DNA from: a virus | DNA length: 64,000 nt | Reading direction: 5' to 3' (one strand) | IMG/VR virus record: IMGVR_UViG_3300042402_001868 | Span: 1-64,000 of that record | Shown: positions 9,202-13,533 of the stretch, in pieces | How positions within the stretch are numbered: position 1 is the first letter of the stretch | How the letters are laid out: each line of letters opens with the position of its first letter | The notes under the pieces: generated by a model | The model's database searches: none | What the model was told of the DNA's origin: nothing | The model's input: only the letters and a program-made list of their open reading frames with translations | Position numbers and translations under genes: made by a program

Positions 9202-9540
9202 ATGGCAGACATTTACACAATTTGGGCAGACAAAGAAGGCGACATCTCAGACTTGGACTGGGTCAACGGCATGAAAAGTTTTTTTGATCATTTAAAATCA
9301 GAAGGCCGTATGGAGGACTATCGCATCACTAGATGCAAGATGGGGTTTAGATCAATCGCAGACATGCCCGAATGGATGATACTCATGGAGTTCCGAGACA
9401 TGGCTCAGATGGATTCAGCTTTCAAACGTGTTGCTCCGTTGTCTGGAGAATTAGAAGCCAAACACAAGAGTTTTAATCAATTTGTGTCAGGAACAATTCA
9501 GCATGCATTGTTCCGTGATTGGCCCGACACGTTTGTATGA
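9202..9540 (+). CDS. Hypothetical protein, DUF6614-like (dimeric alpha/beta barrel-type)
   Basis: Probable start at the ATG at 9202 (MADIYTIW). Motifs YRITRCKMGF..PEWMILMEF..MAQMDSAF..ALFRDWPD. Confidence 0.55.
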   Translation: MADIYTIWADKEGDISDLDWVNGMKSFFDHLKSEGRMEDYRITRCKMGFRSIADMPEWMILMEFRDMAQMDSAFKRVAPLSGELEAKHKSFNQFVSGTIQHALFRDWPDTFV

Positions 9541-10550
9541 AGATTTGCATTTTTTCTGGCAGATCAATTGGAGGTACATTCCTTGATTGGAGCATACATT
9601 TTCTAACTGGCCAGACACAGTATTTTTCGTCAAAACAAAATCAGTTTATTCCTCTAAGCCAAAATCCAGTAAATCACATTCAACACAATGCTCATGGGCA
9701 TTTAAAAAATCATCCAGCAGGAGCCGACAAAACAAAACAGTTTCTTGAAACGTGTAACTCGACTGAATTATACTCGTTATACGCATGTCCACTTCATAAC
9801 AGTACAATTATAGAAAAATATAAAATTGATCCTGTAAAAGAAAATCTCAATGAGATCACTCAACACAAGTTAGCTGACATAAAAAAATTATTCACAGTAA
9901 TGGCAGAACACGGTTCAGCAACTGTTCATCTAGCTGGTGAATCGTTTGTTCCGTTGTATTTTTTAGGTGTTAGAGATCTTGGTACGTTTGTGCTTAAAAA
10001 TGGAAAGCCAGCATCAGTTGAAGAATTAAAAAATGATTTTGAGACTGTATTTTTTAGTGACAGCAATGAAAAGTGGAATGCCGCAGGATTAACCAACAGT
10101 TGGGATATTAGAGAAAAAAATGCTTTAAACATCAGACCACTGGATCCCATACACGAACATTACCTATCAATTCCACACCTGCGTATTGACTGCAGAGAAT
10201 TATGGCATAACGGAATCAGTGTTATCAACAGAGTCATAAACTATCTTAAACTCAAGATTGTACCAGACAGATTTGCCCAATGGAAGAACGTTTATGCCCA
10301 ATGGAGCAAGACACATATAGAATCCATGGAGTTTGTATACAACTGTGATCATATTGTGTCAGCAATTGTTAACAATTGGGACTATGCTATCAATTTGACA
10401 TTTGAGCAAGAGGTAATAATACAACACTTTTTGATTTACAAACATGGTCTTAATCTTAAAACCTGGCAACTAGACAAATTTCCCAGCAATACAAATCAAC
10501 TGCACAGTCTTCTAGAAAACAACATACATCAAATTCCCAAGATCTACTAA
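9537..10550 (+). CDS. Hypothetical protein, sulfotransferase/P-loop-like N-terminus
   Basis: Start at an ATGA overlap. IFSGRSIGGTFLDWSI resembles the PAPS 5'-PSB loop. AT-rich. Confidence 0.45.
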   Translation: MKICIFSGRSIGGTFLDWSIHFLTGQTQYFSSKQNQFIPLSQNPVNHIQHNAHGHLKNHPAGADKTKQFLETCNSTELYSLYACPLHNSTIIEKYKIDPVKENLNEITQHKLADIKKLFTVMAEHGSATVHLAGESFVPLYFLGVRDLGTFVLKNGKPASVEELKNDFETVFFSDSNEKWNAAGLTNSWDIREKNALNIRPLDPIHEHYLSIPHLRIDCRELWHNGISVINRVINYLKLKIVPDRFAQWKNVYAQWSKTHIESMEFVYNCDHIVSAIVNNWDYAINLTFEQEVIIQHFLIYKHGLNLKTWQLDKFPSNTNQLHSLLENNIHQIPKIY

Positions 10551-10963
10551 AGATGTGCAAGCACATCTATTGACTCGCTATCGCTCATCAATGTTTTTTT
10601 AATACTTGAGCGAAGCGATTTAAGCTATTATCTAGATTACGTGGTCATAGTTCACCGTATGCACGGTGAACAAAAAACGCCATTATCTGAGTATAGCAGT
10701 CATCTATCATAATGAGATTGTAGTTTCCTACACGGAGGCGGTTGACCGGTACCCCCTACTCAAGCTTCACGTATCAACGGAACCCTAGTAACCCGATATA
10801 GATCCAAGTCCTATAAGCTGGGGTTGTATCTTTTTCACATCTCCCCGACCATTTGTTGCCTTAAGTTAGCAATTGCCTTTGACGCCCAAGTCTAAATATG
10901 GTATCGCACATATCCTCAATGGGGTTGAGCCACATCGCCCAACACAGTGTCCTAATTGATGCC
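10551..10963. ncRNA. Structured non-coding element (candidate ncRNA on the - strand and/or replication origin)
   Basis: The only long intergenic stretch in the window. Multiple hairpins: AGATGTGC-AA-GCACATCT (10551-10568), GTTCACCGT-ATGC-ACGGTGAAC (10650-10671), TGTAG-GAAA-CTACA on - (10719-10732), CTCAA-TGGGG-TTGAG (10915-10929). Confidence 0.45.
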
Positions 10964-11392
10964 TTACAGTTTGTCTATTATATGAGAGCCATGCACACGC
11001 ACTTGTATGTGGCCATTGTAATAATCTCGTGATTCCAATACTCTTCTTGAAAATTGCTCTCTTGCTTCGATGTAACTACATTCCGATTTGGAGTTGCAAT
11101 AAAAAAGTATTTCTCTGGTGAAGTTTTCGGTGCCTAGTTTGATTACGTCTAAAGTTAATTCTGGGCTTGACCCATAGTACTCTCTCCAGTCTGAGTCGAC
11201 CTTTGATCGTATCTTTTTCTTCTTCTTGATGCCGTTCTTTTGCTTAACTGTCTTGTATGTTGTCTTGCTAAATTTTGCTAATTTTTTGCCTATGTACTTG
11301 CGTCCAGTGAGATTATTTGTGATCAAGTAAACAAATCCAACACACTCTTCGGGCAACGTCTCGATTGGGGTATCTTGATATAGCCATGTCAT
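10964..11392 (-). CDS. GIY-YIG family endonuclease (Seg/EndoII-like, single domain)
   Basis: GFVYLITNNLTGRKYIGKK, YYGSS, FTREIL, E, YYN motifs, with a Lys-rich insert. Confidence 0.85.
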   Translation of the reverse strand: MTWLYQDTPIETLPEECVGFVYLITNNLTGRKYIGKKLAKFSKTTYKTVKQKNGIKKKKKIRSKVDSDWREYYGSSPELTLDVIKLGTENFTREILFYCNSKSECSYIEAREQFSRRVLESRDYYNGHIQVRVHGSHIIDKL

Positions 11393-11451
11393 GTGTTGTA
11401 TGCGATTTATCCTTGCTTTATAGTTATGCCTTACAGTTGATTTTTAAAATT

Positions 11452-13533
11452 TTATGCCAGCTCTATGTCTGTATTGTAGCTAGTGAAGCCGTTTTCTTTG
11501 ACAACTTTCAGGATGTTTTCCACACGTCCTGCAAGCTCATCTCTATGACTCACCAGCCAAATTGATTTGTGTCGTTCTCTGCTCATCTTCTTCAGCAATG
11601 CCAAGGCATTTTCCACGCCTTGTGTGTCTAGCCCGTTGTCAATTAGTTCGTCAATAAACAACAAGTTGATTGGCGAGTACAAACTTTCCCAAACATCTCG
11701 GAATGCCCAGCTCATGGATAAGATCAAGCGATTGCGCTCACCACGTGATAAGTTATCAAAGTCCAGTTCACGACCCAGTTCTTCAATCATCACACTCAAG
11801 TCGTTTTGGAACTTCACAGTATGTGGCAAACCAATACGATCTAAGTAGTGTGTGAGTCGTGCATTTAGATAACTCAAATTCTGATCAATAATCTTCTTAC
11901 GCACAAAACTATCTTTTGATGTCAATAGTTTGAGCAAGAAGTCTTGATGTTCTTGAAGTCTTGTAAGGTCATTGAGTGCATCGTAGCTTACAACTTGTAA
12001 TGCCTGTTGTTGCATTTCGACAATCTGTTCTGTGTAAGGATCCTTCTCTTCACCTTTGGTGGCAATCTGTGTCAGCAGAGTGTTCATGCGACTACGATGA
12101 TCAACTGCCTGTGCTTCTGTATCGTAATGTGTGACAGGTTGTGTGCCAACCTCTACAGGTGTATGTTCTGCCAGTTGTTCAGCATAGGGATCTGTTTCTG
12201 CACGTTTAGCATCAATCTTGTGCTGAATGTTTTCCAGTTCACTTGAGTGACGAATGGCTTGTGTTTCTGTTCGGTAATGTGTGGTAGGTTTAATACCCAG
12301 TTCACCTAGTGCAGCCAATGCATCTGTATTTTCCATCCACTGACCATTTGTGGACAATGCTTGTAGTGCGGCGTCCTGCAGAGCTTTTTCTTTTGTGCCC
12401 AATACTGTTTCGTGATTGGCGTCATGAAAGTCTTGACCACATGCATAACATTTGTGATTTTTTAGTTCTTCAATTTCAGTTCTGAGTTTATCAATGACTT
12501 TTTGTTCTTTGGCTTCATCCGCAACACATCTGGCAATCAGTTTCTCAAGGTCTGCAATGTCCTTGGCTTGTTGTGTGTAAGCGACCAAGTCCACATGTGC
12601 CTGTAGTTCTGCTTGAATATCAATATGGCTGAGATTGTTGTAAGTTAGTTCCAACTCGCTGATGTCTTTTTGTTGTTTTTGTTTCCAAGCAGTTTGTCGA
12701 CCAACTAGAGCAGTATACGCATCTTGTTGTTGTTTCCTTGTGGTCCACACGGCTAGATCTTTGTGAGCCAGCAATTCTACTTCGATGTCAATCTTGGCTA
12801 GATCATCATATTGTGCCACAAGGTACGCTACATCACTGTCGTACTTTTTTTGCCAAAGCACTTGCCTGCGTTTCAAACTTTCGATCTGTTCTTCGATGCG
12901 TTTGTTGGCTTCTTGCTCGGCGCGGATACGGAATTCTTCTTGTGAGATGCTGTCTTTGGTCTGACGGTTGAGTTCTTTGATGGCGTCTGCACGTTCCGAA
13001 AGCAAGGTGATGCCCAACAACTGTTCAATGATGTTGCGTTGGTCATTGGCTTTTAAACTCAAGAATGGTTCGGTATAAGTGTTCAACGCCAACACATGTT
13101 TAAACATGTCGTGGCTCATATTCATCACACGTTCGATGGCATCTTGTGTTTCTCGGCTGTCGCCTTGAGCTTCGTCTGTGGCTACCTGAGCCTCATTGTT
13201 TACATAGAATCGTAGCACGTTGGGTTTACGCCCACGCTCAATCTTGTATTCTTGTCCGTTAACAGCAAAATCCAGACTCACAAGCATGTTCTTACCATTG
13301 GTCTTGTTCACAAGATTGTCTTTGCGGATATTACTCAAGGCCTGGCCGTACAGGGCATAACTCAGCGCATTGATGATTGTGGTCTTGCCTGTACCGTTTC
13401 TAGAACCGTCGCCACCAAGATCCAGATTCTCTCCTAGCACAAGCGTAAGATCGTTGCGATCAAAGTCAATGCCCTGTGTGGCATTGCCCACACTCATAAA
13501 GTTCTTAACAGTTAAATTTTTAATTTGAATCAT
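11452..13533 (-). CDS. gp46: Recombination endonuclease ATPase subunit (T4 gp46 / SbcC / Rad50)
   Basis: Walker A NGTGKTT, zinc hook CYAC, signature LSRGE, Walker B LLFIDE, H-loop VSH. Confidence 0.95.
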   Translation of the reverse strand: MIQIKNLTVKNFMSVGNATQGIDFDRNDLTLVLGENLDLGGDGSRNGTGKTTIINALSYALYGQALSNIRKDNLVNKTNGKNMLVSLDFAVNGQEYKIERGRKPNVLRFYVNNEAQVATDEAQGDSRETQDAIERVMNMSHDMFKHVLALNTYTEPFLSLKANDQRNIIEQLLGITLLSERADAIKELNRQTKDSISQEEFRIRAEQEANKRIEEQIESLKRRQVLWQKKYDSDVAYLVAQYDDLAKIDIEVELLAHKDLAVWTTRKQQQDAYTALVGRQTAWKQKQQKDISELELTYNNLSHIDIQAELQAHVDLVAYTQQAKDIADLEKLIARCVADEAKEQKVIDKLRTEIEELKNHKCYACGQDFHDANHETVLGTKEKALQDAALQALSTNGQWMENTDALAALGELGIKPTTHYRTETQAIRHSSELENIQHKIDAKRAETDPYAEQLAEHTPVEVGTQPVTHYDTEAQAVDHRSRMNTLLTQIATKGEEKDPYTEQIVEMQQQALQVVSYDALNDLTRLQEHQDFLLKLLTSKDSFVRKKIIDQNLSYLNARLTHYLDRIGLPHTVKFQNDLSVMIEELGRELDFDNLSRGERNRLILSMSWAFRDVWESLYSPINLLFIDELIDNGLDTQGVENALALLKKMSRERHKSIWLVSHRDELAGRVENILKVVKENGFTSYNTDIELA

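Follow-up and report, generated by a model that had tools for sequence, protein, structure and literature searches.

A large structured RNA carrying twin identical heptamers lies downstream of small nuclease genes in T4-like lake phages

The omega RNAs of HEARO/IscB and TnpB form, with their nucleases, obligate and co-evolving RNA-protein pairs in which the rule linking guide and target is known. GOLLD and ROOL, which were first found in lake or rumen metagenomes, are RNAs of phages and mobile elements whose function is unknown; earlier RNAs as large and conserved as the one described here have proved to act as ribozymes or guide RNAs or to form assemblies of RNA alone. In phage T4, segB is a free-standing homing endonuclease gene of the seg type located inside a tRNA gene cluster, and the T4 Seg proteins have a C-terminal DNA-binding domain. 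Among catalogued RNA motifs, Polynucleobacter-1 (Rfam RF01718) comprises 16 sequences in Weinberg et al. 2010 (PMC2864571), where it is assigned to Burkholderiales and fresh water and rated as probably cis-regulatory. The passages of that paper that deal with the motif name no phage or nuclease context for it, and in the literature searched no other paper naming the motif was found.

The DNA analyzed here (the window) is a stretch of 64,000 nt from an IMG/VR virus record (IMGVR_UViG_3300042402_001868), which holds 155,922 nt and is estimated to be 45% complete. An initial annotation had singled out a large intergenic gap, and positions 10551-10963 (413 nt) are indeed the longest stretch of the window without an ORF of ≥70 or ≥100 aa, the next-longest being 214 and 335 nt at these two cut-offs, respectively. 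Two transcription units converge on the gap: on its left, a + strand ORF of unassigned family (9519-10550) has its stop at 10550, and on its right, a minus-strand GIY-YIG ORF of 142 aa has its stop at 10964 and is preceded by an SbcC/gp46-like gene (11452-13533). The GIY-YIG protein, which consists of nearly nothing but the nuclease domain, scored 112.3 bits against Pfam PF19835 (cut-off 25). The gap had been described as beginning right at the nuclease stop codon; the adjacency holds, but the conserved RNA described below starts ~10-16 nt later.

Single-sequence folding energies were analyzed against shuffled sequences, and the z scores (-2.39 for the minus strand and -2.68 for the plus strand) represent weak evidence that does not distinguish the strands. 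Comparison of relatives gives strong evidence. IMG/VR contigs contain the gap sequence at 72-99% identity, and RNAalifold predicted 88 pairs from 38 sequences, 34 of them with compensatory double changes. A refined model of 103 pairs, guided by mutual information, was tested on 73 distinct sequences (MAFFT alignment A3). With this model 93.0% of the cells were paired, compared with 85.3% in 500 column shuffles, none of which (0/500) reached 93.0%; 53 pairs showed double changes in the relatives versus 34.8 in the shuffles, and the cells with double changes numbered 600 versus 155. When the partners were slid by 1-3 columns, only 35-44% remained paired. Read as the plus strand, the model paired 84.0% of the cells versus 93.0% on the minus strand, and 839 G.U cells were counted versus 169 A.C cells, so that the fold fits one strand only, the minus strand, which is also that of the nuclease gene. 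Covariation supports helices Pa, P1-P6, P8-P10, P12 and P13. P7 and a candidate helix H11 are conserved with zero double changes; hence, the alignment argues neither for nor against the pairing of either. H11, in which R1 would pair with the stretch before R2, was set aside, as it fails where the second base is C. The low score of P14 (39% paired) arises because MAFFT misaligns this hairpin, which can be recognized in every sequence. These results show that the gap is a gene for a highly structured RNA of ~400 nt, a large non-coding RNA as the initial annotation had proposed. It comprises 13 or more helices and a single pseudoknot, and its long junctions are invariant (Table 1).

No conserved open frame was found in the 38 sequences, the longest frames (35-80 codons) shifting in frame and strand, and the reading as a protein-coding gene or pseudogene was rejected for want of a frame common to the relatives. 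The failure of the initial annotation to recognize tRNA, tmRNA or intron consensus elements was borne out: ARAGORN found 0 tRNA or tmRNA genes in the window, none of 4227 Rfam families matched the window at the gathering threshold, and a search of 10300-11200 at E ≤ 10 gave only chance microRNA hits. Likewise, blastn against GenBank phages gave no match. A literature search returned no description of the RNA, the available text of PMC8632094 and PMC10690425 included, although the supplementary catalogue of PMC10690425 may list this RNA.

Table 1. Positions in the window of the upstream nuclease gene, the RNA gene and the parts of the RNA
Feature	Position	Strand	Basis or remark
SegE-type GIY-YIG nuclease gene, 142 aa	10964..11392	-	PF19835, E 2.2e-32; phrog_447; immediately upstream of RNA
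Whole RNA gene, ~400 nt	10551..10954	-	Conservation, no consistent ORF, 103-pair model
Variable 5′ domain	10786-10954	-	Part of whole RNA
Central domain	10713-10785	-	Part of whole RNA
3′ module	10551-10712	-	Part of whole RNA
Closing helix Pa (10949-10951 with 10881-10883), encloses P1 and P2/P3	10881..10951	-	Double changes in 2/3 pairs; mutual information 10951-10881
Hairpin P1	10924-10943	-	Double changes in 6/7 pairs
P2/P3	10885-10923	-	Double changes in 3/4 (P2) and 5/7 (P3) pairs
Hairpin P4 (UUGC...GCAA)	10856..10872	-	Double changes in 3/4 pairs; 95.5% paired
Hairpin P5, conserved A-rich loop	10817..10849	-	103-pair model; strongest mutual-information pair 10846-10820
Hairpin P6	10786..10813	-	99.9% paired; 3 pairs with double changes
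Pseudoknot, 5′ strand (P6 loop)	10797-10802	-	Pairs with 10703-10709
Pseudoknot, 3′ strand	10703..10709	-	Double changes in 5/6 pairs; 93.3% paired
P7, nearly invariant block ACUAGGGUUCCGUUGA...	10763..10785	-	99.3% paired; no double changes
P8, encloses P9 and P10	10713..10762	-	103-pair model
P9, GAGG-UAC-CGG-UCAA-CCG-CCUC	10734-10756	-	Common to type B; recognizable in bacterial copies
P10, GAAA-capped	10720-10731	-	Double changes in all 4 pairs
R1 heptamer AGAUAAU	10682..10688	-	Identical to R2 in 96/100 unique segments
Hairpin P12, between R1 and R2	10650..10671	-	Double changes in 6/7 predicted pairs across types A, B, C and bacterial copies
R2 heptamer AGAUAAU, 55 nt after R1	10627..10633	-	Identity with R1
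Hairpin P13, conserved GAGCG-loop-GCGAA core	10569..10592	-	Double changes in 6/6 outer and 2/2 inner pairs; in bacterial copies
Terminal hairpin P14, abuts stop codon of convergent + ORF	10551..10568	-	Same hairpin from different sequence in relatives

Several stems picked out by the initial annotation coincide with helices of Table 1. The stem GUAG-GAAA-CUAC is P10; GGGGG..CGG-UCAA-CCG..CCUCC is P9, which is kept with double changes in one pair and the others invariant; and the GTTCACCGT hairpin is P12, in which three pairs show double changes among the RNAs of the window's own type (type A, defined below). Two others found no support: in the region of TATAG-n9-CTATA covariation prefers P6, whose loop forms the pseudoknot, and CATTAT..ATAATG showed no mutual information, its first two bases being part of P8, a helix that covaries. 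The motif GACTTGG does occur twice, but its copies are in different helices and do not change jointly. The repeat AGATAAT on the minus strand, which had been listed only as a recurring motif, corresponds to R1 and R2 and proved to be the most remarkable feature of the RNA. In addition, a hammerhead-like reading of UGAUGAGCG..CGAAA was discarded, this sequence being hairpin P13. The GAGCG-loop-GCGAA core of P13 is kept from phages to bacteria (L351, L352 and L354) while its outer stem covaries freely, and the core might form tandem G.A pairs of the kink-turn kind.

We then analyzed the distribution of the RNA. The 80 best nuclease loci, ranked by nearness to that of the window, included 73 with enough downstream sequence, and all of these (73/73) carry such an RNA, which occurs with three 5′ domains: that of the window (type A, 36 loci), RF01718 (type B, 27 loci) and a third one (type C, 10 loci). 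The window itself gave no match to the RF01718 covariance model (cut-off 37 bits), even at E ≤ 10 over 10300-11200, whereas in 11 sister loci, which belong to more distant relatives of the nuclease gene, RF01718 was found at 69-122 bits right after that gene. In these loci the motif is followed by ~250 nt common to the window RNA, namely P9, the R1-hairpin-R2 arrangement, the GAGCG...GCGAA hairpin and the terminal hairpin. Across the types P9 reads GAGG-UAC-CGG-NCAA-CCG-CCUC, and with an nhmmer profile of type A the type B loci were matched in their 3′ half only. Type B relatives also appear, by eye and uncounted, to form the loop-to-downstream pairing of the pseudoknot with other sequence. 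The Rfam model of RF01718 covers 141 nt, the actual RNAs measure ~400-500 nt, and their common 3′ part (250-350 nt) is outside every Rfam family. The same locus and the common 3′ domain therefore make the window RNA a new form of an RNA far longer than the 141 nt that the catalogued motif spans. The window RNA resembles the RF01718 RNAs in locus, neighbours, 3′ domain and freshwater or Burkholderiales habitat, and differs from them in its 5′ 170 nt, which have another fold and do not match the RF01718 model. Thus, the claim of a novel RNA is upheld in part: the RNA is absent from Rfam and its 5′ domain is new, but the 3′ domain, itself undescribed, and the locus are those of RNAs that bear RF01718 as an alternative 5′ domain, and the 141-nt piece is the only part already known.

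These RNAs constitute a modular superfamily, in which an interchangeable 5′ domain is joined to a common 3′ domain, belonging to T4-like lake phages of ~330-350 kb and to the accessory DNA of small Burkholderiales genomes. One copy was present in each of seven phage records, three of which are 99-100% complete (337-347 kb). Whole 5′ domains are swapped between phages with flanking genes that are ~90% identical, which suggests rapid diversification of the sort seen at loci of phage-host conflict. The window RNA is like GOLLD and ROOL (compare 10.1101/2024.12.08.627333) in being several hundred nt long, pseudoknotted, highly conserved and borne by phages or mobile elements; it is unlike them in its smaller size, its swappable 5′ domain and its paired heptamers, and it matches neither in sequence or model. 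An orphan Rfam motif of 141 nt thus becomes one module of a superfamily of 400-500-nt RNAs with at least three interchangeable 5′ domains, which is placed in ~340-kb T4-like lake phages and in Burkholderiales accessory DNA and is linked to small nuclease genes wherever an examined phage copy has enough flank.

Among 151 sampled Burkholderiales genomes, RF01718 was detected in four (1.7-1.9 Mb), in three of them above the cut-off. Within two genera it was found in 1/4 and 2/7 members, and hence the RNA is accessory in this order. The bacterial copies (L351-L354, in genomes G052, G005, G066 and G094) continue into the same 3′ architecture and are located on short contigs or beside genes for DUF6641 (divergent), DUF6876, YbjN-like and tyrosine-integrase proteins, neighbours that suggest a genomic island and may hint at the host of the phages. 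In a pattern scan of genome contigs, the only one of the at least 121 loci listed that matched the type A profile was L332, in which a Flavobacteriales MAG contributes a contig of 1.7 kb.

The strangest feature of the RNA is its twin heptamers, whose sequence differs from lineage to lineage but stays the same in both copies. In the window R1 and R2 are both AGAUAAU and flank P12. Among 100 unique R1..R2 segments of phage loci, which comprise nine heptamer types, R1 and R2 are the same in 96 and differ by one base in the other four. Of the 73 nuclease-seeded loci, 67 have identical copies, and so do more distant type A members, with the further types AGAUCAA and ACAUGAA, and all four bacterial loci, which carry AGCGAAA, GGCGAAA (twice) and AGCGAUG. 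For the two most variable heptamer columns the mutual information for identity is 1.05 and 0.68, and the RNA contains no column complementary to them. A complement of the heptamer was not found at a fixed place within 2.5 kb, nor was it enriched in the 156 kb of the window's genome, and no co-varying complement appeared at homologous sites of four phage genomes, where many sites were unalignable. Identity rather than complementarity points to a common external partner, to a templating or realignment step, or to a mechanism that needs two equal sites; such a rule is unusual and gives a sharp experimental handle. A reading of the heptamers as mini-ORFs or stop codons (AGA-UAA) was rejected, since the frames shift between relatives and AGAUCAA occurs. 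Inverted repeats of the heptamer had no consistent occurrence in phage genomes. The only instance of a phage's own heptamer, AGATAAT-N7-ATTATCT (G160:C1:341984-342004), is located near the end of a complete genome of 346,856 nt with terminal repeats, and, being absent from the other genomes, it is probably due to chance.

Six metatranscriptome runs contain ~30% of the sampled words of 10300-11600, and contigs from four runs of four studies cover the RNA and the nuclease ORF. Several of these contigs bridge the end of the ORF and the RNA (e.g., 10863-11119 and 10864-11183), as expected from the proposal of the initial annotation that both are co-transcribed; assembled contigs show neither strand, ends nor level, and may derive from DNA carry-over. 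A contig covering 10948-11307 (run X17, depth 67.9) ends in Illumina adapter at 10948, ~7 bases into the conserved RNA. This end, which a single contig of a single run shows, may reflect a processing step that separates the RNA from the nuclease mRNA. Uncovered parts, depth differences and a skip of 75 nt (10894-10970) were not interpretable. Taken together, the contigs are consistent with co-transcription and give a weak hint of a cut at the 5′ edge of the RNA, no more.

The reading that we favour, with a probability of roughly 0.45, is that of an autonomous RNA of phages and mobile elements whose twin heptamers would allow it to act by base pairing. The RNA would be made as the tail of the gp46-nuclease transcript, would probably be cut free near 10948, and would then act on its own, as RNA or as a ribonucleoprotein, rather than as a dedicated cofactor of the GIY-YIG protein. 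The small nuclease genes upstream would be neighbours of the homing type, established next to an RNA gene that is strongly conserved. More tentatively, the freed RNA may work by base pairing through its two single-stranded heptamers, whose identity would fit a single nucleic-acid partner, probably of host origin, that is contacted twice.

Loci were seeded with type A RNA motifs only, and in all of the 61 that have ≥700 nt upstream (61/61) a small nuclease gene precedes the RNA on the same strand: a GIY-YIG gene within 130 nt of the RNA in 46, a GIY-YIG gene at 0.13-1.9 kb with other ORFs between in 12, and a PD-(D/E)XK nuclease gene (PF24608) adjoining the RNA in two and further away in one. 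In most loci the spacing is 6-60 nt. The nuclease-RNA adjacency in phages is thus a real association. It is also more regular than usual for selfish homing genes, which counts against the homing-neighbour part of the favoured reading and would also fit a functional nuclease-RNA pair. In such a pair, which we consider clearly less probable, the RNA would be a working partner of the upstream nuclease, i.e., a guide, a targeting scaffold or an inhibitor, and a domain-only nuclease without a DNA-binding domain would borrow its specificity or control from it; the short spacing, the RNA-library contigs that join ORF and RNA, and the fast-changing paired heptamers, which look programmable, are all on this side.

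What makes us doubt a working partnership is that the two components do not change together. A non-homologous PD-(D/E)XK nuclease can occupy the same place, and other ORFs can separate nuclease and RNA. Although the 5′ domains of RNA types A, B and C are unrelated, the GIY-YIG proteins next to them are ~92% identical, one identical GIY-YIG protein is paired with two heptamer types, and among 23 protein pairs that differ by ≤4 residues 12 have different heptamers, so that a comparison of heptamer and nuclease sequences revealed no link. The GIY-YIG protein was matched in 478 phage records, always at <60% identity. Cultured Kyanoviridae homologues of the same length and with the same basic loop have no such RNA downstream: in Melnitz-3, P-HM2 and C48C1, whose homologues are <50% identical to that of the window, only 80-150 nt follow the GIY-YIG gene, and the R1..R2 pattern is absent from the genomes. 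The Lys-rich insert that the initial annotation had considered suited to nucleic-acid binding does exist as a Lys/Arg-rich loop, but the RNA-less homologues have this loop too, 4-5 residues shorter. Among eight neighbouring proteins scanned in the 1.1-3.1 kb around the four bacterial copies there was no nuclease; with flanks of this length, one may still be located further away. Finally, none of the searches described above disclosed a heptamer-matching target.

Measured against what a nuclease-guide pair should display, the constant adjacency was found in phages (61/61 and 73/73), and a single co-varying cognate nuclease family was not. The likeness to HEARO/IscB and TnpB omega RNAs lies in a large structured RNA beside a small nuclease gene on mobile DNA and in short segments that vary freely between copies; the difference is that here the nuclease family is swappable, identical nucleases stand beside different RNAs, and no target was found. 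Because no co-variation of nuclease and RNA was detected and no nuclease was seen in the short bacterial flanks, we read the RNA as an independent phage or mobile-element RNA, and the proposal of a ribonucleoprotein with the nuclease found no support in view of the PD-(D/E)XK replacement, the near-identical GIY-YIG proteins beside unrelated 5′ domains and heptamers, and the same bacterial flanks. The arrangement recalls the T4 seg genes in that a small GIY-YIG gene (PF19835) is situated between conserved genes and beside a conserved RNA gene, and in that different nuclease families use the same slot; it departs from them in that the gene is present in every relative examined rather than sporadically, and in that the window nuclease lacks the C-terminal DNA-binding domain.

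Identical short direct repeats by a hairpin are the rule for iterons and for the overlap regions of tyrosine recombinases. The locus could accordingly be thought to act at the DNA level, as a replication or recombination site in which R1 and R2 are iteron-like or crossover repeats, or through an RNA II-like preprimer. Besides the repeats and their conserved hairpin, the integrase genes adjoining bacterial copies and the position of the element where two transcription units converge agree with such a function, which we nevertheless hold to be unlikely. The excess of G.U over A.C cells fits the fold to one strand; the loop-to-strand pseudoknot, the GNRA cap and the at least 13 covarying helices are typical of RNA; and the region is present in RNA libraries. 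Furthermore, heptamer type and neighbouring protein show no link, and no recombinase was seen in the flanks; to our knowledge none is known in T4-like phages. The pseudoknot and the G.U pairs, which are specific to one strand, likewise speak against the structured DNA origin that the initial annotation had offered as its second option.

A third and quite improbable possibility is that of a cis-acting 3′ UTR that ends or stabilizes the gp46-nuclease transcript, or tunes the expression of the nuclease, with no function in trans. The start of the RNA shortly past the nuclease stop codon is in its favour, and the two end hairpins also serve the convergent gene: on the + strand P13 is followed by T7 and probably terminates that gene as well. 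The rating of Polynucleobacter-1 as probably cis-regulatory, as given in the passages of Weinberg et al. 2010 (PMC2864571) on the motif, points the same way. Against a mere 3′ UTR, 400 nt with invariant junctions and a pseudoknot go far beyond what a terminator needs, the RNA is retained when the upstream gene changes, and the bacterial copies precede unrelated genes. A simple terminator scan gave 0 terminators versus 0.7 expected.

Two further proposals start from the heptamers. They might be programmable segments, one on each side of the conserved hairpin, that pair with two strands or copies of a DNA or RNA target, which would then be handed to whichever domain-only nuclease (GIY-YIG or PD-(D/E)XK) is encoded upstream; we regard this as a long shot, which, if true, would give giant phages and mobile elements an RNA-directed nuclease system of a new kind. 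Telomerase RNA and the DRT2 defence RNA contain template-realignment repeats, whose identity is mechanistically required while the sequence itself is free. By pure analogy with the two short identical direct repeats that bracket a segment by a stem in those RNAs, R1 and R2 could, in a second exotic reading, serve as sites of realignment while repeats are synthesized from a template.

Group I introns often carry GIY-YIG genes, and TIGR01453 (group I intron endonuclease) gave a weak match (18.5 bits versus a cut-off of 56). However, a decayed group I intron or a remnant of a lost C-terminal domain of the nuclease is hardly credible and already contradicted, since no Rfam group I intron (RF00028) matched even at E ≤ 10 over 10300-11200, there is no conserved frame, and the substitutions are compensatory rather than codon-like; nor is there an interrupted host gene, as the next gene is convergent and the gp46-like protein (693 aa; motifs read by eye) matches an SbcC-like PHROG profile over residues 1-688 and runs to its own stop.

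Several minor observations concern the surroundings of the RNA. The ORF that converges on the RNA in the window (9519-10550, + strand) encodes 343 aa of no known family; in L047, L048, L053, L064 and L139 it sits between the nuclease and the RNA in the orientation of the RNA, and it is missing from many phages. The region around the RNA is an insertion hot spot for genes. The PD-(D/E)XK endonuclease that replaces the GIY-YIG protein has 168 aa (PF24608, E 2.8e-25; L154:2684-3190, minus strand); a matching ORF is present in L174, L145 has such an ORF further upstream, and the phages with this replacement have a gp46 ~50% identical to that of the window. A scan for sigma-70 promoters gave three promoter-like sites versus 4.1 expected. 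The 59-nt spacer between the stop of the gp46-like gene and the start of the nuclease gene (11393-11451) contains ACTATAAAGC, presumably a partial match to the T4 late-promoter box. Within the RNA, the P10 position tolerates large expansions: three type B loci (L029, L060 and L061) have tandem AATTATAG-like repeats there, ~300 nt after the nuclease stop, and L007:3700-3745 has an extended hairpin of 45 nt at the same position.
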